A stretch of 64,000 nt of DNA from Sphyrna mokarran (lineage: Eukaryota), in contig JAGIQG010000025.1 of the NCBI GenBank assembly GCA_024679065.1, forward strand, positions 19,344,001 to 19,408,000. Reading direction: 5' to 3'. Under the pieces are notes generated by a model. That model saw only the letters and a program-made list of their open reading frames with translations, ran no database searches and was not told where the DNA came from. Positions 1,377 to 46,100 of the stretch are shown here, one piece after another; within the stretch, counting starts at the first letter, position 1, and each line of letters begins with the position of its first letter. A program made the translations under genes and the position numbers.

Positions 1377-1703
1377 AGAACAAAAAACAAAACAGCACGG
1401 TAAACAGGCCCTTTGGCCCAACGAGCCCACGCCGCCACCCCGATGTTTCCACCTCTACCCATGATCCCTGTCTATGTTTATAGATCTATGGAATAAAAAC
1501 CAAATTTGAGACAATTTAGGGAGAATTTGTTTTGCCAATTAGCCTAAGAGCACATTTTTGGGATATGGGAGGAAACCAGAGCACCCAGAGAAAACCCATG
1601 CAAGCATAGGGAGAACGCGCAATCTCCCACAGACACAGGCCCAAATCCATATATCTGCACACACAGCGATAGTCACTCAACTGTCGTGTTGCCCACCAAA
1701 TGG
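1377..1703 (-). mobile_element. V-SINE-derived element with CR1-type tail, same subfamily as 17037-17359
   Basis: V-domain core (gggttttctctgggtgctctggtttcctccca on -), tail gggccaaagggcctgtttaccgtgctgttttgtt; aligns end to end with 17037-17359. Confidence 0.85.
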
Positions 1704-14384: not shown

Positions 14385-15416
14385 CATAGAGTCAGAACCA
14401 TATAGCGCAGAAGAGAACATTTGACCCATCAAGTCCTCACCAACACATTGGAGACATCTGATCTCACATATAGCAGTACTTGATCCATAGCCCTGAATGT
14501 TATGATGTGCCAAGTGCTCATCCATATATCTTTTAAAGGATGTGAGGCAACCCATCTCTAACACCCTCCAAGGCAGCACATTCTAGAATCCTACCACCCT
14601 CTGAGTTTAAAAAAGTTTTCTTCACATCGCCCTAAACCTCCTGCCCCTCACCTTGAACCTATAGTGGTTCACACTGCTGCCTCATAGCACCAGGGATCCA
14701 GGTTCAGTTCCCGGCTTAGTTCACTGTTAATGCAATGTTTGTGTTCTCCCCACGTTTGCATGGGTTTCCTCTGGGTGCTCCAGCTTCCTCCCACAATCCA
14801 GAAGCTGTACTAATTAAGTGCATTGGCCGTGCTAAATTGCCCCTCCACAGATACCAGAGTGTAGTGATTAGGGACTTTCACAGTAACTTCATTGCAGTGT
14901 TAATGTAAACCTACTTGTGATAACAAACTTTGTCTCCTCTGACTGAACCTTCAACTAAGGGGAACAGTTGCTCCTTATCTATCTATCCATGTCTCTCATA
15001 AGCTTATACAACTCACTCAGGTCACCCCTCAGTCTTCCCTGCTCCAACAAAGATAATGTTGTGGTTGGTCTTGACAGCATGGATGGCATTGCATTGTGCT
15101 TGGGTGATGTTTGGGGCTGTCTTGAGTGTGGTTGATGAATCTGGTGTTAATGCACCTCCTGATGGCTTGGGCACACGTCCAGTTGAGGGCAATGGCCTTC
15201 CGGAGGAGTCCACTTTGACCCTTTCCTCTTTGGTTGCTGCACTGCAGTTCCCTCTGTCAGTTTGTCGTCAAAGATAACCCAAGTATATCCAATCTTCCTT
15301 TGTAACTTGATGCTGCCCGGGATGGAGCATTTCTGCAGAATCTCTACTGCATCCCCTCCAGTGCAAAAACATCCTTCCAATTAATATGGCATTCAACTGT
15401 ACACAGTACTCCTGCT
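14385..15416 (-). mobile_element. CR1 LINE 3' part, interrupted by a V-SINE (about 14663-14930) and a Penelope fragment (about 15053-15273)
   Basis: CR1 tail and 'FKRYMDEHL' on -; V core at 14740-14795; PLE motif NITQAQCNAIHAVKTNHNII. Confidence 0.7.
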
Positions 15417-17359
15417 GTGGTCTCTTCCTTGGACACAGGTGAGGTCCCAGAGGACTGGAGAATAGCTAATGTTGTACCGTTGTTTAAAAAGGGTAGTAGG
15501 GATAACCCTGGAAATTATAGGCCGGTGAGTTTGACGTCAGTGGTAGGGAAGCTGTTGGAGGGGATCCTTAGAGATAGGATGTATAGGCACTTAGAGCGTT
15601 GCGATCTGATTAGGGATACGCAGCATGGATTTGTTAAGGGGAGGTCGTGCCTTACAAATCTGGTAGAATTTTTTGAGGAGGTGACGAAAACGGTGGACGA
15701 AGGGCGAGCCGTTGATGTCGTCTATATGGATTTCAGTAAGGTGTTTGACAAAGTCCCTCATGGGAGGTTAGTTGAGAAGGTCAAGGCTCATGGGATACAA
15801 GGACAAGTAGCTAGATGGATAAGTAACTGGCTTGGTAATAGGAGACAGAGTAATAGTGGAAGGATGTTTCTCTAGCTGGAGGTCGGTCACTAGTGGTGTG
15901 CCGCAGGGCTCGGTACTGGGACCTCTTCTATTTGTAATATATATAAATGACTTGGAAGAGGGAGTAAGTGGAGTGATCAGCAAGTTTGCAGACGATACAA
16001 AGATGGCTGGACTTGCGGATAGTGAGGAGCATTGTCAGGCGATGCAGCAGGACATAGATAGGCTGGTAGCTTGGGCAGACAGATGGCAGATGGAATTCAA
16101 TCCTGATAAATGTGAGGTGATGCATTTCGGGAGAAAGAATGTAGGGGGGAGGTATATGATAAAGGGTAGACCTATTAAGAGTATAGAAACGCAGAGGGAC
16201 CTGGGGGTGCAGGTGAACAAGTCTCTGAAGGTGGCAGAGCAAGTGGAGAAGGTTGTGAAGAAAGCATACAGTATGCTAGCCTTTATAGGAAGGGGTATAG
16301 AGTACAAGAGCTGGCCTTTAATATTGCAGTTGTATAAAACGCTGGTTAGACCTCATTTGGAATACTGCGTCCAATTCTGGTCGCCTTACTACCGGAAGGA
16401 CGTGGAGACTCTGGAGAGAGTGCAGAGGAGGTTTACCAGGATGCTGCCTGGTATGGAAGGTCTGAGTTACATTAGGAGAGATTAGGCAAATTGGGAGTTT
16501 GAATTGTTTTCCTTAGAAATTGTTTTCCTTAGAAAGACGTAGACTTAGAGGAGATCTAATAGAGGTGTACAAGATTTTGAAGGGGATAGAGTAAACAGGG
16601 CTAAGCTTTTTCCTAGGATGGACTCAAATAGCACAAGGGGTCACGGGCTTAGGGTGAGGGGGGTAAGGTATTATTTGTATTCTAGGGGGAGTTGTTTCAC
16701 ACAGAGGGTGGTGGGGGTATGGAATGTGCTGCCAAGTAAAGTGGTGGAGGCAGGTACTCTGGAAATATTTAAGGAATACTTAGATGGGCACATGAACAGA
16801 ATGGGAATGGAGAGGTATAAAAAACTGATTTAAAATAGGGATCGTGAGCCTTGGGAGTCCCTGGGAAGTGTGTAAATAGATGATGATATTGATGTACTTG
16901 TTTTTATCCTACAGTTGCTTTGGTCCACCTTGTTGTCTAACGAGGGGCATACACGCAATGGGTCGTGAGAGGACTGCTCTTGGATCTTTTGAGAGTATCC
17001 TACTGCTTCACGTCGTTAGTGTATGCTTGACCTGCACCATCTGATGGGTAACACGACAGCTCAGTGACTATCGCTGTGCAGATACATGGATTTGGGCCTT
17101 TGTCTGTGGGAGTTTGCGCATTCTGCCTGTGCTTGCGTGGGTTTTCTCTGGGTGCTCCGGTTTCCTCCCACATCCCAAAGATGTGCTCTTGGGTTAATTG
17201 GCAAAACAAATTCTCCCTAAATTGTCTCAAATTTGGTTTTTAATCCATAGATCTATAAACATGGACAGGGATCGCGGGTAGAGGTGGGAACATTGGGGTG
17301 GTGGCGTGGGCTCGTTGGACCGAAGGGCCTGTTTCCTGTGCTGTTTTGTTCTTTGTTCT
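15417..17359 (+). mobile_element. Young 5'-truncated CR1 LINE (RT with few frameshifts) with an extended 3' UTR containing a V-SINE-derived segment
   Basis: ORFs 15417-15875, 15832-16485 and 16618-16833 (PEDWRIANV, NYRPVSLTS, GVPQGSVLGP, KFADD); the CR1-type tail appears only at 17310-17359. Confidence 0.9.
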
Positions 17360-17374
17360 TTATATTCCAAGTTT

Positions 17375-18866: not shown

Positions 18867-19076
18867 TTGATAGATGAACAGATCTTGTGTGTGCATGGTG
18901 GACTTTCTCCTGATATCAAAACTCTCGATCAAATCCGAACCATTGAGCGTAACCAGGAAATCCCACACAAAGGAGCCTTCTGTGACCTCGTATGGTCTGA
19001 TCCTGAGGATGTCGATACTTGGGCCATCAGTCCTCGAGGAGCAGGTTGGCTCTTCGGAGCAAAAGTTACAAATGAG
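18867..19076 (+). CDS. PPP6C: PPP6C exon 6
   Basis: tatcag|[16 protein letters not shown]...[16 protein letters not shown]|gtaaat. Confidence 0.98.
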
Positions 19077-24280: not shown

Positions 24281-25734
24281 AATTGCACATAAACCAATAA
24301 CATCTTAAAAATTGACCCTTCTATTTACCCCAGCTTTCTGCTGCACTTACACTGATATTCAAAATTAGATTTAATTTTTCATTTGGCTTGATGGTAATCA
24401 GACAAAAACATTCTTTTTGGCTCAATCCAGCAATGGTTTCCATTAACATTCCTGGCTGGCATCTTGGATTCAGCATGGAATCTTGGCAAATTTACTTATC
24501 AGTCCCTGAGTTTCCGACCTTCATTTATTAGATTACCACCTTTCAACAACAGTGCCTGCATGCACCTCTACTTTTCCCCTCAAACCTAAAACTGTGCCTT
24601 TTATCGTCAATGTTTACCTTCCTTTGGAAAAAGGTGCTTGAGCCAATGCAAGTACAATTTACAGCTTATTGAGAATACCATGGTTAATAATCCTTATTTT
24701 TTTGCTTTCAGTTGTTCTGCAACCTCTTCACGTCCTACCAGTAATATCCTTCAGCTGTAGTGTGTAGACACCCCACCCATATTTCTGACTTTGCCAGGAC
24801 GTAACCTAGCCATTCTGCTTCCACATCAACCACAACTCCTGCAAATCCATCCCTCAGTTTTACCACCTCTTAACTTTTTTTTTTACTTCACTTTTCTGTC
24901 TCAGTAGTTTTTGTGACAGTGATCTTCTTAAATCATGTCTTATTGTGCTGCACAACCCCTTCCATCCACTAAATTTTAACAAATTGCTACTGATGACTAA
25001 TCTCAATTTCAATTTTTAAAAAATTGTGATTTTTTTTTTGTTGGTTTGCTTTAGACTACAGTTACAGGCTGTGGAAAAATTATATTGATCATTAAGGGAG
25101 GCATAACTGTGCTGTGTATTTCTAGAAAGAGTATAATTCCACCTATATTGAATATACTAGAATATAAACGATCTTTATGCTCTTACAAACTAAAACATAC
25201 CCATGGTTTGTGTGGGAAGCATTCAAGATGTGGATTTAGTGTTATTATTCAACAAGTATTTTAAATTACAAATAACATTGAGATTTGGTATGGAGACTAG
25301 ATTAACACAATTTACTTAAATGCTGTGCAAAAGTGAAGATGCAAATATTCTCATGGCTGGGAGTATTTTCTCAAATGTAAATGTAATCTCAATTTAACAA
25401 AAAAATGATTTGTAACTTTGCTTTAATATTATTAAAAGTATGTAGTTATTTAATAAGTTGTGACATTTTCCACATTTTACAGCTAATAAAAACATTTTTA
25501 TGGAATTTAGCCATAGTTGATGCTTTATTGAACACAGTGAATTTTGTTTGTTTGAATTTCCTTCCAACCTCTTATGAACAGGAGTTATTTCCATTCTAAA
25601 GTACTTACATCGCAGGTCTTTTGGGGCCAATAGGTCTATGCACGTATTTATAGTAAGTCTTGTCCCAACAAATTTGTGTTACAGTCCCATTCTGCAAGTT
25701 TATTTAGTTTAGAGTTTATTTATTTACTAGTATC

Positions 25735-25977
25735 ACAAGTAGGCTTATATTACCACTGCAATGAAGTTACCATGAAAATTCCCTAATCCCTACACTGTGG
25801 CACTTGTTCAGGTACAGTGAGGAGAATTTAGCATAACTAATGCACCTAGCGAATATTTCTTTCAGACTGAGAGGAAACCCTTGCACATACGGGGAGAATG
25901 TGCACACTCGCACAGACTCAAGCCAGCTCCCTGGTGCTTGTGACATAACACTACTAGCGACTGTGCCACCGTGCTGC
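25735..25977 (-). mobile_element. V-SINE
   Basis: Reverse complement of head gcagcacggtggcacagt, V core, and tail cttcattgcagtggtaatataagcctacttgtga. Confidence 0.75.
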
Positions 25978-28439
25978 TTCGTGTCTTTATTTAGTTTCAG
26001 TCCTCCTCTGTATTACCTTGGACTCCAGTGTGGTGTTACCTGTAAATTCTGAAATTGGATTGCTGATTCTGAAGATCAAATCATTTATGTAAATTGTAAA
26101 GTCATTCTAATACTGATCCTTGGGGAATCAGTGCAAGTAACTACCTTTGATCCAACTTTTTTGTAACCAACTTAAGCCATGAGTCTAATGGTACCATAAA
26201 GGATTTTTTTTTTTGGAAATCCAAATATGTCCATTGTGTTACCCATATCAACCTTTGTTGCTACTTTCCTTCCCTTTAGTAGACTTGCATGTCTTTGAAC
26301 TAATACTTACAATGTCAAGAATGGAATAACCTGCTACATCACTAGTATTGTTTTATCATGGCATTAAAGCCAGAAACCATGTGGGATGCTGACCATGCTC
26401 TCCTGTCTACTCTCAATTGGTAAATGTAATACTATTGGATGATATCATTTAGGGTAAATTCAATAATAGAATTATTGACAAATAAGATACTTTGATATGC
26501 CTCCTTTGTACCATAAATGTTCTAATTTTTCAATGTATTTTTATGTTATAATGGCAAGTAACCAGTAAGATAATATTTGAGTTGTTTGAAGAAATTATCT
26601 AGAATCTTTTTAAAGATTACCAGATCTTTCAACTGTGATTTTGATGACATGTCTGCAAAGAGTGTATTAAGTGTTTCTTCATTGCTTCAACATGGGAATA
26701 GCTAGTTAGAACTGTAATCCTGGACTTAAAATCCCACCTCTTAAACCATTTTCTGGAATTTTAAAACCTCCTCCAGTACTTAAAATATCGTGAAAATGCT
26801 GCACAATTGTTCTAATAAGCAATTTGACATTTTTTATCAAAGCCTAAAACAATCCATTTTGTCTGGAAATTGAACAGGGATCTCCCAACCCTGAGTCTCA
26901 GATAGATGACTGGAAATATCCTGAGACACAATTCATTTCTGCCCTCACTCCTTTGCCACTCTGAGTCAAATGATGAAGCCCTTATCCCTGTTGAAGCAAA
27001 TTTCCCCCTTTATACCTTTACCTTTCCTACCTTTGCCTTGTCTCCTTCCTTTCTTTAAATCTCCTTTCCTCAACCTATCTCAGCGCCACTACTGCTGACT
27101 CTCCATTTCACTTTTCCACTTTTCCTCCTTTCTTCCCTTTACACCCAAATTATATAAGCAACCATCTTGTTTATTCCAGAAATAGAGCATAGTTTTATTT
27201 TGTTAGCTTTTAAAATTTGCATCACCTTAAAAAGGCAACACTTAAGTTTCTTCATTAAGAAAGAGTGGGGAAATCAGATAAATAAAATGTTGTACATAAT
27301 CTAACATTATTTGTGACCCTGTAACTACATTCCAGAGTTGGTAGTTACAAAAATCTTTTATTTCAATGTTTTACTGTTCCTATTGATTAATTTTGGCTTT
27401 AACTTTGCTTGTTCCATCTTGAAATGTTGCAGTGAGTTCTTGATCTCAACTGAGAAGGCAGTATGTTTATGTCGAGGATGTACCATTGTTGTACTCATGA
27501 TAAGAGCCAATTCAAGTATGATGTTGAGAACTGATCTGGAAGAGTCCGTTTGCCTGCCTTCTGTGCAAAAAGCTTTCACATTAACAAGCTCAGAAACTGA
27601 AGGAAAATGATATTGAAAAGTTGACACCTCAGTTAGAACTTAAACACCTACAAAAGAATGGGAGTCCCATGCAGTGTAATGATTCACTTTTAAATTATCT
27701 ATGTTTTATATATGGTACATCTACATTCTAAATATAGTTATTCTTCACTTCCACTAGGTTTGCAAAAGAAATTTTATTTTTCAGCTATGGGTTATCATTA
27801 TGATGTTATCTGTTTTTCTGATGAGATAAACATTAGTTGAAGTCAATCTGTGCAGAATGTTATATCTTATTTGATCAGTGTGAGTAATATATGCTCCTGA
27901 ACTGCAGTGAGTCGTTGGTAAACTGTTTGAGAATGTAATAAGAACAATATGAATCATCCACAGAATAAATGATGTACATTGAAATTGTAATACTGGCATC
28001 CCTAGTTTGAAAGAGTGTTTAGAATAATAGCATTATGAAGCCATTTTAAAGACACTCACAATTCCACTAATTTCATTTTGATGTATAATTTCCCTTCCTT
28101 TCTTTTTACTCTTTGAATTTGGCTGGAAATGACCACAAAACATTTGTTTTCAATAAATGCCTCTCTATATTGTAATTTGTCTTAATTTTAATGTAAGTCA
28201 TATCAGAGAAGAAGAAGAAAATAAGAATGTGCAGCAAGAAAACATTTGGCAATTTCCAAAGCTGGCACCAGCGCACAGAGATATCTTGCGAGCTGTCCCC
28301 AGCATACCTTCTAATTCTATCTTTTACTCTCATTTTGTGCTTTTAAAACTGTTCTCTAACTCTTTCAAATTCCCTAACAATGCTCTATTTCTACGATTGT
28401 AAAACTACATTCCACTCCCTCTCTTTCCCTTCTCCCCTA

Positions 28440-28705
28440 GGCAGCATAGTGACAAAGTGTTTAGTGCTGATGCCTCACAGAACCAGAGACTTGGATTTGA
28501 TTCCTGGCTTGGGTAATTGTGTGGAATTTGTGTTCTCCCATGTAAGCATCAGTTTCCTCCCATACTCTGAAAGATGTATGGATTGGCTATGCTACATTCT
28601 CCTTCAGTGTACCCGACCAAGTGCCAGTGTGTGGTGACTAGGGGATTTTCACAGTTACTTCATTGCAGTGTTAATATAAGCTGACTAGTGACTAATAAAT
28701 AAATT
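28440..28705 (+). mobile_element. V-SINE
   Basis: ggcagcatagtg head; tail gactaggggattttcacagttacttcattgcagtgttaat...aataaataaa. Confidence 0.75.
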
Positions 28706-30782
28706 TTTAACTTTATGTACTCTATGAATGGCATGTTTTGTCTCACAATGTGTAAGAAACAATACTTTTCACTGTATCCCAATACATGTGACAATAATAA
28801 ATCAAATCCTCTTCCCTATCATCAGCTGGTCATTAACTAAGGCCTCTCTCTGTATGAACTATTTTTCATCTCTCTCTATGAACTATTTTTCATCTCTCTC
28901 TGTTTCGCTCTCAACCATTTTCAGTCTACTCCGTGATTGTTTACTGTGTGAGCTACTCTTTAAGGAGTTTCCTTGTTCAAAAAAAAGTGGCTAAAGCTAA
29001 TCACTCTAACTACAGGCCAGTCAATTTAACTTCAGTGGTGGCAACTTTCTAGAAACAATAATTCAGAACACAATTAATAGTCACATGGACAAATGCAGGT
29101 TAAATAAAAAGCAGTATGATTTTCTTTAGGGAAAAGTTCAACTAACTTGCTCAAGTTTTTGAAGGGATAACAAAAAGGTTGATGAAGGTGAAGCTATTAT
29201 TATAGTGTACATGGACTTCCACAAGGTGTTTGATAAAATGCCACACAACAGCCTTGTGAGAAAAGTTCCAGCTCATGAAATAAAAGGAACTGTAGCAATG
29301 TCAATATGGAATTGACTAAGTGATGAGAAACAAATAGGAGTTGGTAATAGATTTTATTTGGGCTGGAGGAGGTTTTATGGTGGTGTTCCCAAGAGTTCAG
29401 TATTGTAACTGTTTTTTTTTTATGTATATTAATGACATAGATTTTGATGCACAGGACACAATTTCAAAGTTTGCAGATAATTTGGAAGCATTGCGAACTG
29501 TGAGAATAACAGTGATGAACTCCAAAAGGGCAGACGTGTTGGTGGAATAGGTGAACAGATTGCAGATGAAGTTCAATTCAGAGAAACATGAAGTGATTAA
29601 TTTTGGTAGGAGAAGTGATATAAACTAAATGGGGCAACTCCCTAAAAGGTGTACAGGGAATGTTTATGTATCTCAAAACATAAGAAATAGAGGGAGGAGG
29701 CAACCTAGCCCCTCGAGCCTGTCTTGCCATTCAATACAATCTGATCTGGTAGTGGTTCAGTTCCACTTATCCACCTGGTCCCCATGACCCTTACTTCCCT
29801 TATTGATCAGAAATCTAACCATCTGTGACTTAAACATATTTAATGAGGTAGCCTCCGCTGCTTTAATGGGCAGAGAATTCCAAAGATTCACTACCCTCTG
29901 AGAGAGATTCCTCCTCAACTCTGTTCTATGTTGACTGCCCATTATTTTGAGACTGTGCCCTCTACTTGTTTCCTTTCTAAGTGGGAATAATCTCTCTGTC
30001 TCTACCCTGTGTAGCCCCTTCGTTATCTTATATATCTCAATAAGATGTCCCCTCAGCCTTCAAAACTCCAATGAGTACAGGCCTAATCTACTCAATCTCT
30101 TCTCATAAGCTAACCCCGTCATCTCTGATATCAACTTGGTGAACCTTCTCTGCACTTCCTCCCAGGCCAAAAAAATCATTTCGCAAATAAGGTAACCAAA
30201 ATTGCACACAGTACTCTAGCTGTGGCCTCACAAGTACCTTGTACGATTATAGCAAGACCTCCCTGCTTTTATACTCCATTCCCCTCGTGAGAAAGACCAA
30301 CATTCCATTTGCCTTCTTGATCATCTGCAAACTGAGCTTTTGTGATTCATGCACAAGGACCCCCAGGTCCAGCATGGTGTAATTTTTCACCATTTAAATA
30401 ATAGTCCATTTTACTATTATTCCTTCCAAAGTGGATAACCTCACACTTGCCAATGTTATACTCTGTCTGCCAGATCCTTGCCCGCTCACTTAGCCTATCC
30501 AAATCTCTCTGTAGACTTTCCGCATCCTCCACGCAATTCACTTTCCCACTCATCTTCGTGTCATCAGCAAACTTTGTTACCCTACACTTAGTTCCCTCCT
30601 CCAGATCGTCAACATATATGGTAAACAGTTGAGGCCCCAGCACCAATCCCTGCAGCACACCACTAGTCACCAACTGCCAACTGGAAAAGCATCCATTTAT
30701 TCCAACTCTCTGCTTCCTGTTAGATACAGTAAGAAGTCTGGCAACACCAGGTTAAAGTCCAATCAGTTTATTTGATAGTAAT

Positions 30783-30825
30783 CCCACAAGCTTTCGGAAA
30801 CGGTGTTCCTTTGTCAGGTGTGTGG
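30783..30825 (-). ncRNA. Hammerhead motif with core mutation (CTGACAA)
   Basis: Minus strand cac-CTGACAA-aggaacaccgtttcc-GAAA-gc-TT-gtggg; G8>A relative to the 34575 copy. Confidence 0.55.
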
Positions 30826-31224
30826 AAGGTTCTGATCAGAGAAGGGCATATAAAGTCACACACTGTTTACAGAATACTGATTAGAATGCAAGTCTTTACA
30901 ATTAACTTGCTATTCAAGTCTGAAAGATGCAGACAATGTGAATGGGGATAGCATTGGCATAGGTTACAGAGATGTGCACTGTCTCCAGACAGGACAGTAA
31001 GTGAGATTTTACAAGCCCTGGCAAGTCCTAGAGCTTACATATAGTGCGACATAAACCCAAGATCCCAGTTGAGGCCATCCTTATGTGTGTGGAACTTGGC
31101 TATCAGTCTCTGCTCAACGACTCTGCGCTGTCATGTGTTGTGAAGGCCGCCTTGGAGAACACTTACCCAAAGATCAGAGACCAAATGCCTGTAACCACTG
31201 AAATGGTCACATTTCACATTTGAA

Positions 31225-32563
31225 ATGGGCAAAGTATTGGAGAGAATTATTAGGGATAGGATTTATAGTTATTTAGAGAGAAATGAATTGATTGGGGATA
31301 GTCAGCATGGTTTTGTGAAGGGTAGGTCGTGCCTTACTAACCTTATAGAGTTTTTTGAAAAAGTGACCAAAGAGGTGGATGGGGGTAAGGCGGTTGATGT
31401 GGTATATATGGACTTTAGTAAGGCGTTCGATAAGGTGGCCCATGGAAGGCTTCTGCAGAAAATGCAGATGTATGGGATAGAGGGTGATTTAGCTAATTGG
31501 ATTAGGAATTGGCTAGCAGATAGAAGACAGAGGGTGGTGGTTGATGGGAGATATTCATCGTGGAGTTCGGTTACAAGTGGTGTACCTCAGGGGTCTGTTT
31601 TGGGGCCCCTGCTGTTTGTAATTTTTATAAATGATCTGGATGAGGGTATTGAAGGATGGATTAGTAAATTTGCAGATGACACTAAAGTCGGTGGAGTGGT
31701 AGATAGTGAAGAGGGGTGTTATAGTTTGCAGAGAGACTTGGACAAGTTGCAGAGCTGGGCCGAGAGGTGGCAAATGGAGTTTAATGTGGAAAAGTGTGAG
31801 GTAATTCACTTTGGCAGGAATAACAAATGTGTAGAGTATAGGGCTAATGGTAGGATTCTTAATAGTGTTGATGAACAGAGGGATCTTGGTGTATATGTGC
31901 ATAGATCCCTGAAAGTAGGCAGTCAAGTCGATAAGGTTGTTAAGAAGGCATATGGAGTCTTAGCTTTTATTGGTAGGGGGATTGAATTTCGGAGCCGCAA
32001 CGTCATGTTGCAACTGTACAAAACTCTAGTGCGGCCGCACTTGGAGTATTGTGTGCAGTTCTGGTCCCCACATTATAAGAAAGATGTGGAGGCATTGGAG
32101 AGGGTACAGAGGAGGTTTACCAGGATGTTGCCTGGTATGGAGGGCAGGTCTTATGAAGAGAGGCTGAGGGATTTGAGGTTGTTTTCGTTAGAAAGAAGGC
32201 GGCTAAGAGGAGACCTTATTGAAACATATAAGATGATTAGAGGTTTAGATAGGGTGGACAGTGATAGCCTTTTTCCTAGGATGGAGAAAGCTAGCACGAG
32301 GGGACATAGTTTTAAGTTGAGGTGTGGTAGTTATAGGATGGATATCAGAGGTAGGTTCTTTACCCAAAGGTTGGTTAAAGTATGGAATGCCCTGCCTGCA
32401 GCACTTGTAGATGCGCCAAGTTTGGTGGCGTTTAAGAGGTTAGTAGATAAGTTTATGGACGAAAAGGGAATGGTTTAGTTTGGAGGGTCATGGCTTTTTC
32501 CTAATTGGTCGGCGCAACATCGAAGGCCGAAGGGCCTGTTCTGCGCTGTAATGTTCAATGTTC
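31225..32563 (+). mobile_element. Very young 5'-truncated CR1 LINE with an uninterrupted 417-aa RT C-terminal ORF
   Basis: ORF 31225-32478 without stops or frameshifts (QHGF, SCLTNL, GVPQGSVLGP, KFADD); tail aggccgaagggcctgttctgcgctgta(atgttca)(atgttc). Confidence 0.95.
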
Positions 32564-34574
32564 GCCAACAGGAAGGGAATGGTCTTGCCTGGTGATTGTT
32601 GAGTGACATTCATTCATCCGTTGTCGTAGTGTCTGCCTGGTCTCTCCAATGTACCATGCTTTGCGATATCCTTTCCTGCAGCGTATTTGGTAAACAAGTT
32701 GGCCGAGTTGCAAGAGTATGTGCCATGTACCTAGTGGATGGTGTTCTCACGTGAGATGATGTCATCCACGTCGATAATCTGGCATGTCTTGCAGAGGTTG
32801 CTGTGGCAAGGTTGTGTGGTGTTGTGGTCACTGTTCTCCTGAAGGCTGGGTAGTTTGCTGCGAACAACAGTGTGTTTGAGGTTGTGTGGTTGTTTGATGG
32901 CAAGAAGTGGGGGTGTGGGGATGACCCTGGCGAGATGTTCGTCTTCATCAATGGCGTGTTGAAGACTCTGGAGAAGATGTCGTAGCTTCACCACTCCAGA
33001 GAAGATGTCGTAGCTTCACCGCTCCGGAGAAGTACTGGACGACGAAGAGTAGTCTGTCCACTGTGTCCCACAGTGCAGAGGTCAGTGTGATTTTTCTCTG
33101 TGGCGCATCGAAACTGTAAAATGATGAGTCGAGCGCCATATCCTGTTCTTGTGAGAGCATCTTTCAGCATCTGGAGGTGTCTGTTGTAATCCTCCTCGTC
33201 TGAGCAGATCCTGTGTGTACGGAACGCTTGTCCATAGGGGATGGCTCCTTTAACATGTTTAGGGTGGAAGCTGGACAAGTGGAACATTGTGAGGTTATCT
33301 GTGGGCTTGTGATACAGTGAGATGATGAAGTGACTGTGCTTGATGAAGATGTATGTGTCGAAGAATGTCACCAATTCCAGAGAATAGTCCATGGTGAGTC
33401 TGATGGTGGGATGGAACTTGTTGGCGTCATTATATAGTTATTTCAGTGATTGTTCATCAATCAAGGATGGTCATTTCAGCACCTCATTGTACCGCAAGCC
33501 CACAAATAACATCACAATGCTCCATTTCTCCAGCTTCCACCCTAAACACATTAAAGAAGCCATCCCTTATGGACAAGCCCTCCATATACACAGGATCTGC
33601 TCAGATGAGGAGGATCGTGACAGACATCTCCAGACGCTGAAAGATGCCCTCATAAGAACAGGATATGCGCTAAACTCATTGATCGACAGTTCCAACGCGC
33701 CACAGTGAAAAATCGCACCAACTTCCTCAGAAGACAAACACAGAACACAGTGGACTGACAGATACCCTTCATTGTCCAATTCTTCCCCAGAGCAGAGAAG
33801 CTATGACATCTTCTCCGGAGTATTGAACACTTCATTAATGAAGATGAGCATCTCACCAGAGCTATCCCCACACCCTACTTCGTGCCTTCAAACAACTACA
33901 CAACCTCAAACAGACTGTTGTTTGCAGCAAACTACCCAGCCTTCAGGAGAACAGTGACCACAACACCACACAATCCAGACACAGCAACCTCTGCAAGACA
34001 TGCCGGATTATTAACATGGATGACATCATCTCACGTGAGAACACCATCCACCAGGTACACGGCACATACTCTTGCAACTCGGCCAACATTGTCTACCTGA
34101 TACGTTGCAGGAAAGGATGTCCCAAAGCATGATACATTGGAGAGACCATGCAGACGCTATGACAATGGATGAATGAACATCGCTTCCTGTTGGGGAACAC
34201 TTCAGTGGTCATGGGCAGTTGGCCTCTGGCCTTCGGTTAAGCGTTCTCCAAGGCGGTCTTTACGACGCATGGCACAGAATCGTTGAGCAGAGACTGATAG
34301 CCAAGTTCCACACACATGAGGATGGCCTCAACCAGAATCTTGGGTTCATTTTGCACTATCTGTAACCCCCATGACTTGCTTGGGCTTGTAAAATCTCAGT
34401 TACTGTCCTGTCTGGAGACAATACACATCTCTGTAACCTATGCTAATGCTGTCTCCACTCACATTGTCTATATCTTTAAGACTTGAATAGCAAGTTAGCT
34501 GTGAAGACTTGCATTCTAATCAGTATTTTGTAAACTGTGTGTGACTTTATATGCCCATCTTTGATCAGAACCCT

Positions 34575-34617
34575 CCACACACCTGACGAAGGAACACCAT
34601 TTCCGAAAGCTTGTGGG
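34575..34617 (+). ncRNA. Minimal type I hammerhead ribozyme in the Penelope pLTR
   Basis: cac-CTGACGA-a-GGAA caccat TTCC-GAAA-gc-TT-gtg; stem I CAC/GTG, stem II GGAA/TTCC, palindromic AAGCTT stem III. Confidence 0.75.
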
Positions 34618-35609
34618 ATTACTATCAAATAAACTGGTTGGACTTTAACTTATTACTGTGTTTACCACAGTCCAAAGCAGCATCTCTACATCATGACTGC
34701 ATCCTGTTAGATAGCCAATCCTCAATCCATGCTAACACTTTACCCCCAACTCTATGTACCTTAATCTTTTGCAGCAACCTTTTGTGAGGCACCTTATCCA
34801 ACACCTTCTGGAAGCCAAGGTGTTGGATAAAAACACCACATCTATTGGTTCCCCTCTGTCAACTGCACTCGTTACATCTTCATAAAAATCTAGTAAATTT
34901 GTCAAACATGACTGTAAGTCAGTTCATATGACAGGACAGGTTGAGAGAGTGATTAATAAAGCATGCAGTATAATCGACACAGGGGCACATAGAGTATAAA
35001 AGCAAGGAGGATTTATTTGACCTTGTGTAATTCACTAGTTTGGCCTCAGCATTGTATCCAATTCGGGGGACAATACTTTCGGAAGGATGTGAAGGTATTA
35101 GAGAAGGGGCAGAAAAGATTCATGAGAATTCCAGCAATGAGGAAATTCAGACATGAAAATAGACGGGAAAGTAAGAACTGTTTTCCATGGAGAAAAGTAG
35201 GTTGAGAGGATATCTAATAGAGGTGTTCAAAATCATGAGAGATCTGGTCAGGGTAGATGGAGAGAAACTGTTCCTACTCGTAAAAGGATCAAGATGAAAA
35301 AACACAGATTTAAAGTAATTAGTGATGTAAATAAAAACTTGTTCACACAATGGACGGTTGGAGTGATGATGAAGGCAGCTTCAATTGAAACATTCAAAAA
35401 GGAATTAGACTGTTATCTGAAAAGGAAGAATGTGCAGGATAATGAAGCGAAAGCTGAGAAATGGAACTAAGTGAGTTGGTCAATCAGAGAACTAGTGCTG
35501 ACATGATAGGTCTTCCTTCTATGCTAGAACAATTCTGTAATTCCAAATAAAGTTCAAAATACTCCCCCTTCTCTTACAAAGGAAATTAACATGCATATAA
35601 AGAAATTAA

Positions 35610-36144: not shown

Positions 36145-37135
36145 TAGGCTTACATTTATATAGTGCCTTTCATTGTCTTACATCCTAAGCATGTTACAGC
36201 TAATGGAGCACTTTTTGAAGTGTAACCACTTGTCCTAATGCAGGAAGCACAAAAATTTGCACACAGTGAGTGCCACAAAGAGCAGTGTGAGGTAAAGCAA
36301 TATTGATAAATATTGGCGAGGATAATGGGGATAACACTAAGATAAAAGCAAATTAATGTGGATACTGGAATCTGAAACAAATACAAAAAATGCTGAAAAA
36401 CCTCAGCAGCTCTGACAATATCTTGGAGAGATAATGCGTGTAGTGAATGATTTGATTTGATTTATTGTTGTCACATATATTGGGATATAATGAAAGGTAT
36501 TTTTTCTTGCGCTCTAGACAGACAAGATGTGGAGATGCAGGCTTTGGACTGGGGTGGACCCAGTAAGAAATCTCTTAACTCTAGGTTAAAGTCCAATAGG
36601 TTTATTTGGAATCACAAGCACTATTCCTTCATCAGGTCAGTCATGATGAAGGAACAGTGTTCTGAAAGCTCGTGATTCCAAATCAACCCATTGGACTTTA
36701 ACCTGGTGTGATGAGACTTTTTACTCTATTCATATTATTTAGAGTACATAGGGGAGAAGGTAAGCAGAGGATGCAGAATATAATGTTACAGTCACAGCTG
36801 ATAAAGATCAGCTTAATATAAGATAGGTTCATTCAAAAGTCTGATAGCAGCAGGGAAGAAGCTGTTCTTGAGCTTGATGACCACTGTTCTCCACAAATGC
36901 TGTCAGATCTGCTGAAATTTTCCAGCATTTTCTTTAACGCCGGTAACAGCCTTGGCTCTTGAAATAGTGCTTTTGGATCTTTTTTACCTGACAGACAGGG
37001 CCTCAGTATTAACAAGACGGCACCCTCGACAATAGCGCTCTCTCCAGCAACGAACTGGAGTGTTAGCCTACAGATGTTCGTGCTCAAGCCTCTCGACTGA
37101 GATTTGGACCCGTGACCCCCTAATTCAGAGAGCTA
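36145..37135 (-). mobile_element. Deu-domain SINE interrupted by several short inserts (Rex/Babar-like end, Penelope termini)
   Basis: SINE tail at 36145-36340 and head at 36940-37135; inserts include (tgatt)n tail at 36447-36465. Confidence 0.55.
36526..36725. mobile_element. Penelope pLTR fold-back mini-element with degenerate hammerhead (36642-36674)
   Basis: Inverted arms 36562-36635/36644-36725; catgatgaaggaacagtgttctgaaagctcgtg. Confidence 0.75.
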
Positions 37136-37479
37136 TGGCTGGTGCAAATATAAGGACTAAAATTCTTGTAAATGTAAGTGGAATTCTGTCCTCCTCTCTT
37201 TCCCTTTGTTGGGAAAATGGAAACTTGGAAAGGTGCCAGTTTTTTTGTACGCTGTCAGTGTAGTGTTGGAGAGAGTAGGGAATTTCAGTTTGGGGGTGGG
37301 GGGGAGTTCGTTCATCCATGATGATGGCTGCATTGACTTTCTGCGTTAACCACTCTGCAAATTACAAAGTGTGCGGGGTGGAAAAAAGAATAATTTTTCG
37401 CCGATCTTGGCAAGGCGCTAAAAAAGATGGTGTGAACACTAAATAAATAATAGACGATTTTGGCATTTTAAAGAACCCA

Positions 37480-38170
37480 TCGCTCGCAACTCAGCAGCAG
37501 CGCATCGCCAGGCGCTCCCCGACTGGCTGAATGTGGCCAAGCGCGCTGTATTCTAGCCCTATTCCGGGGGGCCAACCGAACTTGATCGGCCCTCTTACCA
37601 CCCACCTTCGGTGGCATCATTTTATTGACGTCGATAGAAACCAGTGGAAGGAGAGTATGTCTGACAGTGGGCGGGGCCTATCGGCGAGAAAGAACCAATG
37701 CGGGACGGCCGGACATGGTGACTGGGAGGTGGGATTTTGTCGGCGGCGCCTGGAAGCCAGTGTGTGAGCCGCGCGCCGAGTCAAAGGCGGCGGGGGCCGG
37801 CTCAGAGCGGATGGTGGTTAGTTTTCTAAGGTACGGCGGCCGCCCATGGCGTTGAGGAGCCAAACGATATAAACCGACGGCGGCGGAAGATCCCAGCCAT
37901 CGGTGAGCGGGTGAAACTTAAAAAAAAACCGGGAAGAGTAAGGATCCGAGCCCGTAAATAAAGGGGGGGGGGGGGAAATCGGATGAGATCGGTGTGCGTG
38001 TGTGTGTGAGGATAACGGGAGGGATAACGGGAGGGATAACGGTCGTCGGTGCGAGAGGCTTCCTGTTTTCAAAGGCTTTGGCCGTCCCCCCCCCCCCCCG
38101 CTTCTTTCCCGAGTTAAGCTGAGTCTCCGGGAGGATTCACGACAGTAAAGTGGGGGGGTGGGGGGGGAGG
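37480..38170 (+). promoter_or_regulatory. CpG-island promoter and first exon region, probably SCAI
   Basis: CpG-rich; CRE-like tgacgtcg 37626-37633, GC box 37669-37676, CCAAT 37695-37699, G/C tracts downstream; SCAI follows PPP6C on the same strand in human (synteny inference). Confidence 0.75.
37811..37830 (+). CDS. SCAI: Putative first coding micro-exon of SCAI (MVVSFL[R])
   Basis: gagcggATGG context, donor AAG|GTACGG in phase 2; human SCAI starts MV and, from memory, its first exons end in phase 2. No downstream SCAI exon was found in the window. Confidence 0.45.
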
Positions 38171-41974: not shown

Positions 41975-43178
41975 GGAAGCTCCAGCTTCCACCCTAGACA
42001 CGTTAAAGAAGCCATTCCATATGGACAAGCCCTCTGTATACACAGAATTTGCTCAGATGAGGAGGATCGTGACAGACACCTCCAGATGCTGAGAACAGGA
42101 TATGGCGCTCGACTCATCGATCGACAGTTCCGATGTGCCACAGCGATAAACCGCACTGACTTCCTCGGAAGACGAACACAGGACACGGTGGGCAGAGTAC
42201 CCTTTGTTGTCCAGTACTTCCCCGGAGCGGAGAAGCTACGACATCTTCTCCGGAGTCTTCAACATATCATTGATGACGATGAATATCTTGCTAGGGCCAT
42301 CCCTACCCCCCCACTTCTTGCTTTCAGACAACCGCACAACCTCAAACAGATCATTGTTCGCAGCAAACTACTGAACCTTCAGGAGAACAGTGACCACAAT
42401 ACCACACAACCCTGCCTCAGCAACCTCTGCAAGACATGCCAGATCATAGACATGGATGACATCGTCAAACGTGAGGATACCGTTCACCAGGTACACGGTA
42501 CATACTCTTGCAACTCGGCCAACGTTGTCTACCTAATACGTTGCAAGAAAGGATGTCCCGAAGCATGGTATATTGGGGAGACCATGCAGACACTACGACA
42601 GCGGATGAACGAGCATCGCTCAACAATCACCAGGCAAAACAGTTCCCTTCCTGTGGGCGAACACTTCAGCAGTCACGGGCATTCGGCCTCCGACCTTCGG
42701 GTAAATGTTCTTCAAGGGGGCTTTCGTGACACACGACAGCGCAGAGTAGCTGAGCAGAGACTGATAGCCAAGTTCTGCACACATGAAGACGGTCTTAATA
42801 GGGATCTTGGCTTCACGTCACACTATCTGTAACCCCCGTAACTTGCCTGGATTAGCAAACAACCTCACTTACTGTGCTGTCTGGAGAAAATACACATTTC
42901 TCTAACCAATGCTCAGGATTCCCTTCACACACATTGTTAGCCACTTTAACACTTGAATAGCAGGTTAGATATAAGGATTCACATTCTAATCAGCAATCTG
43001 TGACTGTCTGTGTTGATATGTGTGCTATTGCAGACCAGAACATGGCATTTGCCTGACGAAGACAGAAAGTTGAAAGCTCACAAATTTACTATCAAATAAA
43101 TCGGTTGGATTTAAAATTGGTGTTGCTAGATTCTTACTGAGTTCTTACTACCCCAGTTCAACGCCGGCATCTCTACAT
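41975..43178 (+). mobile_element. Young 5'-truncated Penelope-like element with an intact GIY-YIG endonuclease C-terminus
   Basis: ORF to 42832 with CxxxxCKTC...H, VVYLIRC...YIGET...RMNEHR...GLN; TSD catttctggt 41965-41974/43179-43188. Confidence 0.92.
43048..43084 (+). ncRNA. Minimal type I hammerhead ribozyme in the Penelope pLTR
   Basis: tttgc-CTGACGA-a-GAC agaaa GTT-GAAA-gc-TC-acaaa. Confidence 0.65.
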
Positions 43179-46100
43179 CATTTCTGGTTAAGCCAGGACT
43201 AGAAGTCCTGGCAGAAATATGGACTATCCTTAGAAAAATAGGAGCAGCGTGGCAATCCGATGGTGATTTCCACTCCTTGGAAAATACAATCCACTTAGTT
43301 TAAGTCAACATTGTTTTGTAAATCAAACCATAGTAGTCAACAGATTTTAATGCACACTGTTAATAGGCATTGCTTTTCAAATATAAGTCTGCACTCAACA
43401 TTATCTGACTTTCCTAACGTTTTGGTATATTTTATACAAACAACTTTTCTAAATATGCTATTTGTAACCAAATTAACAATTACTTGTTAATAGGATTATA
43501 GTGACTTTTATTTGTTGGACAGCGCATTGCATTACATTACAGAAATTAGGTTCATACAATTACATTCCATTTTCTTATGCACGGTTAGGGCATCTCTTTT
43601 TTTTTCCCCACACACACTGATGTAACAAGTGTGACTTAGCTGGGGGGATTGTCATTGCCAATATTTTCTCTGATTTTTGAATGATAATATTCAAAGGAAT
43701 TCCTATTATTTCAATTGAATTAAAATATCTGAAGCTGTACTGATCTCAAGATGAATTTTTTTTTTGAGTCATGAAATAATGACTGACACAATGAATGTAT
43801 CACAGTTTGGTGGGTGACCTTTTAACGCTGAACTATAATTGCATAGGTATACATTTGGTGGCTTGAACAACAAGTTTGTTATGGAAAATGTGGAGAGTTT
43901 TAACAATTTGTTTGTTTTGAAGATTTGTCAGAATTACATGATTGATTTCCAAAGAAGTAAGCTTTTTTAAAATTCTTGTTCATTTGATCATATTTACATT
44001 TGTTTCCAACATAACAGTTTTAAGTGTCAAATTTTTGAAATAAAAACTCTTCCCTTCATACCTTTTCTGAAAAGAATTTCAACTTTTATAAAGAATTGAG
44101 TGAGCCAGTGTATTTGTATATTTCATTTCTAATGTAATGTGAATAATTTGTGTATTTACTTTCAACAACAAAAGTGTGCAAAAAATTGAACTTGGACAGT
44201 AAGCATTTAAAAGCAATTTGAAGTACACTTCAGTAACCATGGCGAGTATTGCCTGTAATTTGTAATACATTCCAGAGTTGATAGTATAGTATTTGATTGT
44301 GGCTAAAAAAATGCATTTTGTCAAAAGTTGCGCTTTTGTCTTGCACTTATCAGGACAATCTCAAAATACCAGTGTCAGAGGAAGCAATTTTATATTGTGT
44401 GAGAAGAAAATGCTGGTTGGCAATTGGACTCTGAGTACGGGTGTTGCCATGGGGAGTGCACAGTTAATGGTGACTGGTATTAACTGTCAGGCATTGTGAG
44501 AAAATTTAAGCCAGGCAGCTTGATCGTAGCTGGTGAAGGCATTGCCTTGAGGAATGAATCAGTGAATGGCTATTACTTATTTTGTTTAGTTGAAACATGT
44601 ACGCAGTATTGCGCCTATTTCAGTTAAACAAAATAAGATGATGCATTGACCAATCAGAGTCAAGGTATCTGGATTAAGTTTTCAATCAATGTTTCGAGCA
44701 GAAACCAAATTTATATTTTTTTCAGCAAAATTCACATTCCAGCAGATCAGAATTGAATTTTTAACAAAAATGCTTTATGTTTAGTTTACCCTTGGTGTTG
44801 CAAATTATTCTGAAGTGAACAAAGCAGTGAAGACTAATATTGTACAACATGAATAACAAATCAAAATCTTTCTTGCATGCCAATTTGGCTGTTTGAACAG
44901 CATAATTGAGGAATAGCATTATTGTATATTGGCATTGGACAGCTGAATTCATGTTATATCGGTATCTGATGTGCTTTAAGAGATGTATGGCATCCATTTG
45001 GTGTTTGACCCTAATAGAATTTGACATTAATTCATTGTGTATCTTGATGAATGCAATCTAATGTAAAAAAATATGAGGGAAAAATCTGAACAACAATCAA
45101 CATTCAGTGGAGAGAACAGATAATTATAATATTTGAAATGTAGATTCTTCATCACTCCAGATTTTTGCTAATCAGCTAAGTGTTTCCAGCTTTTTTGATT
45201 TTATTTCTAATGCAAATATGATTTTGCTTTACAGTTTCACCCTCCCCAACCAGAACATTAGCCACAAACCTAAAATTAGGATTTATTTTCGAAGAATCTT
45301 TCCAGAAATATTTCCAATTAATTGGCAGTTAAGATTAGCATAAGTAATCTTAAAGCAACTATTATATTTAAAAGTTCTTTACAGTAAAAATATGATTTTC
45401 ATTTATGTGAAATGTTTGACTTGGTGTATAATTACAAGAATTCAATGGAAATTCAGTATTCAACATCTTGGGAGTTGAGCTGTAACTGATGTGTCAGTAA
45501 TGAACCTCTGGATTAGTACCTAGGGGGTTGATGAAGTGTAATTGAAGTGTCGGTAATATAACATTGATCTCTCTTTTTTTTATCCTGATGATTTATTGGA
45601 CAAAAAAACTGCCGCGTAGAAGAACTGGGTCACCAATTCTACTCCTGAATTGGACTGAGTTGGCTGATGGTAACAGTGAAAGTAGATCTTGTTCTCCTTT
45701 AATTAATAAAGGGATACTTTTGTTAAAGTTCCTGCTCCTGAATGCTCTTCATATCTCTTCCCTTGCTTCCATCTGTATTTTCATGTTGGGTGTTGAGTTG
45801 ATTGGGTGAAATATTGTCCACAGTTGAAAACCCTTCCAATATATGAGGGACTCGTATATTAGCATTAGATAATGAATGACGGGTGGGATTCATGATCCTA
45901 AACCACAGTTTAAAAAAAAGCCTCACCTGCAAGAGAGAAGTTAAAAACAAAAATATACAAAGTTAGATGTATGATGACTGAAATTGAGTTATTTCTATGA
46001 AACATAATTTTAGCAACAGTAACTGCTCATATAACAAACATTAAATTGCCTTACTATAAGAGCTTAAAAGCTGAAGAATGTGTATTTTGTAACATAGATC

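Follow-up and report, generated by a model that had tools for sequence, protein, structure and literature searches.

The window, that is, the whole 64,000-nt stretch of DNA that was analysed, contains many CR1 copies and V-SINE-type elements and resembles intronic sequence from a cartilaginous fish. The translation of an exon at about 18873-19076 is a segment of a protein phosphatase, which we take to be PPP6C, and the unit at the centre of this study (15417-17359, plus strand) is in sense orientation to this host gene. As originally predicted, the whole unit is flanked by an older CR1 element on the minus strand, whose two parts remain collinear on both sides of it, with alignment edges at 17363 and about 15423 (Table 1). 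The 3' part of this host element is further interrupted by a V-SINE (about 14664-14930) and by another insert of about 200 nt (about 15055-15270). At the breakpoint occupied by the unit, about 76 host codons are missing, and the search for a target-site duplication found no shared 4-mer or longer between the two junction regions. Such a gap may have been made at insertion, as a target-site deletion, or afterwards; in the second case, two separate insertions could have been fused by the deletion.

Table 1. Features of the unit, of the CR1 element that hosts it and of the copies with which it is compared
Feature	Position	Strand	Remark
Old host CR1, 5' part, codons 196-461 of reference P0096	17360..18102	-	
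Old host CR1, 3' part, from codon 538 of P0096 to its own tail	14390..15416	-	
CR1 ORF2, 5'-truncated, RT domain to native stop	15417..16833	+	Frame closes at TAA 16831-16833
Unique stretch, 203 nt, no CR1 tail, putative 3' UTR	16834..17036	+	CpG o/e 0.59
Predicted long imperfect hairpin within the unique stretch, 92 nt	16943..17034	+	-35.2 kcal/mol
9-nt leader	17037..17045	+	7/9 bases common to second copy
Decayed tRNA-derived head	17046..17105	+	Weak A box, no B box; shorter than old V-SINE heads
Putative V-domain body and downstream continuation	17106..17226	+	Homologous to four other in-window V-SINE-type copies
Spacer	17227..17297	+	Common only to second copy
CR1-type tail, stem-loop and short terminal repeats	17298..17359	+	Closest in window: 31225 CR1 tail
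Second copy, 327 nt: leader, dead head, V body, spacer, tail	1377..1703	-	
Comparison CR1 outside the unit, open RT frame	31225..32563	+	85-nt short tail

Within this breakpoint, a CR1 reverse transcriptase (RT), a unique stretch, a V block and a tail are contiguous on one strand, which confirms the observation from which this study started. The RT is that of a CR1 element: its nearest relatives are CR1-type ORF2 proteins, with 63-82% identity to the full CR1 ORF2 protein P0059, 65-74% to proteins on unnamed or contaminant contigs and about 50% to many bird and turtle proteins, and its best database matches carry PF00078. Within the window, its nearest relative is the RT of the 31225 CR1. The unit's RT has four indels (near 15848, 16469, 16490-16530 and 16585), and its 5' boundary at 15417 is uncertain by about 7 nt, where it overlaps with host sequence. 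Two short database proteins, P0121 and P0124, belong to the same subfamily (4 hits among 4 candidates) and have the C-terminus in common with the unit at 82-85% identity (58 of 71 residues for P0121; 35 of 41 over the stretch compared for P0124). Because P0121 terminates at the same residue, the unit's stop is the subfamily's own, and the reading frame was thus not severed at a random junction.

The 31225 copy is itself a young CR1, with an open RT frame of 417 codons that is 95% identical to P0070. It interrupts another repeat, whose halves lie at 30727-31208 and 32559-33275 and match 41980-43181 and 33528-34694. Copies of the 41980-43181 repeat also contain a pair of 36-nt inverted repeats that match perfectly (9033-9068/9126-9161), as well as the window's most stable local fold (about 36541-36740). 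Vertebrate-type CR1 sequences are also found on short contigs of Aeromonas, Carnobacterium, Klebsiella and Proteus assemblies (L001:183-520; P0059, P0088, P0094), probably as contamination by host DNA.

The region downstream of the stop codon sets the unit apart from the other CR1 copies in the window. The original prediction held that no CR1 tail directly follows the stop at 16833, unlike in the 31225 copy, and this is what we find: the distance from stop to tail end is 526 nt in the unit versus 85, 90, 87 and 80 nt in four other in-window copies, so that the short 3' UTR of 80-90 nt found in the other copies is absent from the unit. A tail profile built from eight in-window tails, the unit's included, gave 18 matches in the window at E<=20, none of them between 16834 and 17297. 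Likewise, the roughly 200 nt of unique sequence noted earlier proved to be 203 nt long, and neither blastn nor nhmmer found a further significant match to it in the window (next best nhmmer E=4.3). The predicted hairpin in this stretch was more stable than all shuffles (0 of 200 as stable, once its ends had been chosen), and equal stability was reached in 9 of 315 window segments, itself counted. We regard the hairpin as a modest hint that the putative UTR may be structured.

The tail that closes the unit matches the tail profile at E=4e-10, the unit's tail being itself part of that profile, and matches the 31225 tail at E=3e-5 in an independent blastn comparison. It has the 3' stem-loop and short tandem repeats by which membership in CR1 is recognised. 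The nested hairpin of the 31225 tail is reproduced in the tail of the second copy and degraded in that of the unit, which folds no better than its shuffles (z +1.29). Since insertion of a CR1 copy requires a tail, this one must have used the tail at 17298-17359, unless it used another that has since been deleted. The tail could have arrived with the SINE, if a whole SINE was captured, or it could be the LINE's own, if a V block entered the UTR; either origin is compatible with what we see. None of 39 profile hits corresponds to an ORF-end relic behind the V block, and the pairwise score for such a relic was not significant, being reached by 24 of 110 G-rich control windows for the unit and by 7 of 110 for the second copy. 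Two short direct repeats between the stop region and the spacer (D3 and D7) were considered and rejected (alignment z=1.2).

A second copy of the leader, head, V body, spacer and tail lies on the opposite strand. It is 89.9% identical to 17037-17359 over 327 columns, with 29 substitutions in 323 aligned bases (91% identity) and one 4-nt indel. The dead head and spacer attributed to this copy in the original prediction are indeed those of the unit, but the hexamer said to be shared upstream of the head carries less weight, as its CCAT is possibly derived from the target. CCAT at the 5' end of the second copy recurs 3 nt past its tail and may be a 4-nt target duplication or a junction microhomology; if it is a microhomology, the template still extended 9 nt above the head. 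This is where the copy begins, and 7 of the 9 leader bases match those of the unit (nominal P=0.002, with the boundary picked post hoc).

We take the sequence at 17106-17226 and its four in-window relatives to be V-domain and V-SINE sequence, labels that draw on general knowledge of the V-domain and on likeness among the copies in the window. A profile search, with the profile made from its own members, found six V-SINE-type copies in the window, among which the unit and the second copy form a group of their own, with 92% mutual identity across head and V body and 54-59% identity to the other four. The head is as degraded as had been described, with no recognisable B box: against the B-box consensus, the best match has 4 mismatches in both copies versus 1, 2, 2 and 3 in the four old V-SINEs. 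The A box has 2-3 mismatches in the unit and the second copy, and no tRNA or Rfam match was found. By definition, a SINE carries within itself a pol III promoter made up of an A box and a B box (PMC3531059), and neither copy has the promoter that an active SINE would need. Taken as a protein-level proxy for linkage, the antisense frame across the head and V block gave no candidate.

The decay of the head predates both copies. Against leave-one-out consensuses of the old V-SINEs, the state common to the unit and the second copy scores 64-68% identity and the old copies themselves 72-78%, so that the common sequence had already diverged from the old V-SINE consensus to the extent seen in dead genomic copies. 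Relative to the consensus of the four old in-window copies, identity is 79% in the V body and 48% in the head, the latter figure being depressed by uncertain gap placement; the head is shorter in both copies, and the position of the gap is ambiguous. A different old V-SINE on the minus strand (about 25895-25979, in the region of about 25.8-26.0 kb) has a head gap at a similar place, apparently of independent origin, which indicates that such losses recur and counts against the reading favoured below. These comparisons show a common source that was already a decayed V-SINE lacking a B box. Because both copies have the same dead head, an ordinary pol III SINE is argued against as the source, and an ordinary SINE inserted beside a LINE is an unlikely explanation of the unit. 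Three of the old V-SINE-type copies (14664-14930, 25718-25977 and 28440-28704) have a common 3' end, unlike the CR1-type tail of 1834-2120, and at least three tail types therefore accompany the V body in this window.

We favour a model, to which we assign a probability of roughly 0.6, in which the unit was inserted as a single piece, copied from a CR1 lineage in whose master element the 3' UTR had taken up an old V-SINE. The 327-nt copy is then probably a shorter truncation of the same LINE RNA. The chimeric LINE-SINE master of the original prediction stands in part: a single composite insertion is favoured by the one tail, the native stop, the decayed head common to both copies and the matching ages of the parts, whereas the step from there to a family has one join behind it. 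The strongest point against our model is that the sole short copy starts approximately at the head (1 of 1, 9 nt above it), as an ordinary SINE would. Random truncation is estimated to land that near the head in only a few percent of cases.

The same starting point, together with the host gap and the lack of a target duplication, would also follow if, in a one-off event, a member of a young V-SINE subfamily that has a leader of 9 nt and ends in a CR1 tail had inserted in sense orientation into a resident CR1, within its long 3' UTR, after which the LINE tail and about 230 nt of host sequence were deleted, for example between the two similar tails. V-SINEs with CR1 tails are the known state in sharks and rays (HE1/HER1; PMC3747384, in excerpt). 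However, such a history requires an active SINE with no B box and a head of 48% identity, as well as a CR1 UTR of more than 200 nt when the four measured have 80-90 nt. A subfamily with two copies in 64 kb would have had to strike a target of a few hundred bases, and the deletion would have had to stop exactly at the SINE tail. We consider it unlikely that the unit formed in this way.

The ages of the parts are consistent with a single composite insertion. In the V block, 9 changes were assigned to the unit and 12 to the second copy, with 8 unassigned; the unit's V block thus has 9 to 17 changes in 323 bases, or 2.8-5.3%. In the RT, 8 of 201 residues that are invariant in seven reference proteins are altered in the unit, compared with 3 of 201 in the open 31225 copy. 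The unit's value corresponds to about 2% DNA change (0.8-3.6%, from a binomial interval and simulation), or the RT is about 4% changed if its 18% protein distance to P0121 is divided evenly. The observed-to-expected CpG ratio is 0.46 in the RT, 0.59 in the unique stretch and 0.45 in the head and V body, against 0.07, 0.08 and 0.21 in three old V-SINEs and 0.31 in the window as a whole; about 11% of 203-nt window segments reach the level of the unique stretch. The RT and the V block seem to be young to the same degree, each about 1-5% from its source, and in composition the unique stretch does not resemble old intron DNA. Equal ages would also fit two elements that were active simultaneously. 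Elsewhere in the window, a CpG-rich region at about 37250-38150 (up to 24 CpG per 203 nt) may be a promoter island or a GC-rich repeat of recent origin.

The dead promoter and young age are explained equally well by a pol II-transcribed, non-autonomous element made up of the unique stretch, V block and tail and mobilised in trans by CR1, if reverse transcription switched template to a CR1 mRNA and so produced a single chimera. Template switching has been proposed for CR1-mobilised SINEs (PMC5729268, in excerpt) and for Alu/L1 chimeras (bioRxiv 2025.02.02.635956, in excerpt). In the latter, however, as far as the accessible text describes them, the LINE is on the 3' side, which is the opposite order, and a switch at this locus would need to land at or just past the native stop. 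We therefore hold this origin to be distinctly improbable. The changes assigned to each copy bear on another possibility, in which a single event at this locus or close to it produced the composite, a read-through or host intron transcript then gave rise, exceptionally, to the 327-nt copy, and there is no amplified family. The two copies do lie only 15 kb apart in one window, and the unit is sense to the gene that contains the 18873-19076 exon. Against this, both copies have changes of their own (9 and 12 assigned), as expected for two daughters of a third source, and LINE copies do not usually insert locally; we rate such a local origin as very improbable.

The favoured model, capture of a V-SINE by a CR1 master, suggests a simple route of propagation. 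The RT, unique stretch, V block and tail lie contiguously on the same strand inside one breakpoint of the older CR1. A source whose pol III promoter was dead would have been transcribed within a longer RNA, for which the LINE mRNA is the simplest candidate. Stringent LINEs recognise their own 3' stem-loop, as shown for zebrafish elements (PMC4176376, in excerpt), and CR1 tails contain a hairpin and microsatellite (PMC5729268, in the accessible text). In such LINEs it is established that ORF2 protein binds the 3' stem-loop and that reverse transcription starts at the tail, as would presumably hold here. With this start, the span between stop and tail is copied first, so synthesis would in most cases stop within the 526-nt UTR and leave copies that resemble SINEs. 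The master would have arisen once, either when the transcript of a tail-less CR1 continued across neighbouring DNA and a dead V-SINE as far as a compatible tail, or when the V block inserted or recombined into the UTR.

It is plausible that this structure belongs to an amplified family, the RT-to-V join being seen in one copy; a second copy of the unique stretch was not found in the window or in the collections searched. Two properties expected of such a family, a promoter-dead source and parts of equal age, are present. A more specific proposal, that an autonomous CR1 lineage of cartilaginous fish has amplified with a captured, promoter-dead V-SINE as its 3' UTR and has preserved the V-domain (79% identity) better than the head (48%) because the V-domain or the neighbouring 90-nt hairpin aids the LINE RNA, is tentative, and we consider it rather doubtful at present. 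If such a lineage exists, some "SINEs" in these genomes would be truncations of LINEs, and V-domains could pass from SINE to LINE and back. A family would also reverse the usual flow, in which a SINE takes the tail of a LINE, and would allow conserved SINE bodies to spread without pol III; repeat annotation would be misled, with short copies filed as SINEs. In addition, since a LINE UTR lets the promoter decay, any extra conservation of the V body would point to a role in the RNA, which makes this a natural test. If the structure is confined to a single locus, it is an ordinary accident of nested insertion.

Searches elsewhere covered collections of other kinds. An exact scan of GTDB genomes with 25 nt of the spacer gave 0 matches, and blastn of 16700-17359 against plasmids and phages gave no match; these collections are not expected to hold the element. 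A scan of GTDB for the RT C-terminus returned 117 pattern matches at two loci. One, on a 547-nt contig, is the end of an ordinary CR1 with a short tail that belongs to another subfamily; the other is a match of 14 residues. A 54-residue frame in the unique stretch had one hit among 1.84 billion proteins, a TPR-repeat protein; with no tblastn match to the region, we attribute it to chance. Blastx of the unit's UTR against 125 fetched proteins found nothing at E<=1.

In the literature searched, which did not extend to Repbase, Dfam or subscription journals, we met no description of a V-domain in the 3' UTR of a LINE, and the structure may thus already be catalogued there. The accessible text of PMC11481361 contributes nothing further on this point. 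The accessible text of a Repbase-wide comparison of LINEs and SINEs reports no V-domain in a LINE 3' UTR (PMC5786205), but that survey set aside 3'-terminal similarities, so such a case could have been passed over. The elements Ingi-3_AC (Ceph-SINE-like) and RTE-1_DAn (tRNA-like), described in the accessible part of the same work, resemble the unit in having a SINE-like stretch in a LINE consensus, possibly through LINE-SINE recombination; unlike in the unit, these stretches are short, lie in the 5' UTR or at an unspecified position and are not near-complete SINEs at the 3' end (PMC5786205). The unit shares with the vertebrate CR1 LINEs of the chondrichthyan clade an RT domain, 5' truncation, a 3' stem-loop and short terminal repeats (PMC13343379, in excerpt), and differs in its 526-nt 3' UTR with a SINE-derived block in place of 80-90 nt. 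In its accessible parts, this vertebrate-wide survey mentions UTR structure for the 5' end only, and the length of ScyCan_CR1-3b is, by our own arithmetic, compatible with an ordinary short tail (PMC13343379). A motif search of the first 400 bases of the shark CR1 consensuses from that source gave 0 matches, a result with no bearing on 3' ends.

Finally, several known systems combine the same kinds of parts. Alu/L1 and U6/L1 chimeras are, like the unit, sense-oriented joins of SINE and LINE with matching ages, but their SINE is 5' and their LINE 3', and they are individual chimeric insertions (bioRxiv 2025.02.02.635956, in the accessible text). In the MITE MER6/MER6A, a V-domain was likewise captured and spread by another mobile element, although the carrier is a non-autonomous DNA transposon and not a LINE 3' UTR (PMC6887750, in excerpt). 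HE1, a V-SINE, and HER1, a CR1, are the known pair in sharks and rays (Ogiwara 1999, 2002, as cited in the accessible parts of PMC3747384 and PMC4824008). This pair has in common with the unit a tRNA-derived head, a putative V-domain, a CR1-type tail and a CR1 partner, probably in the same animal group. In contrast to that pair, in which the SINE borrows the tail of the LINE, the head of the source is dead here and the V block lies downstream of CR1 ORF2.
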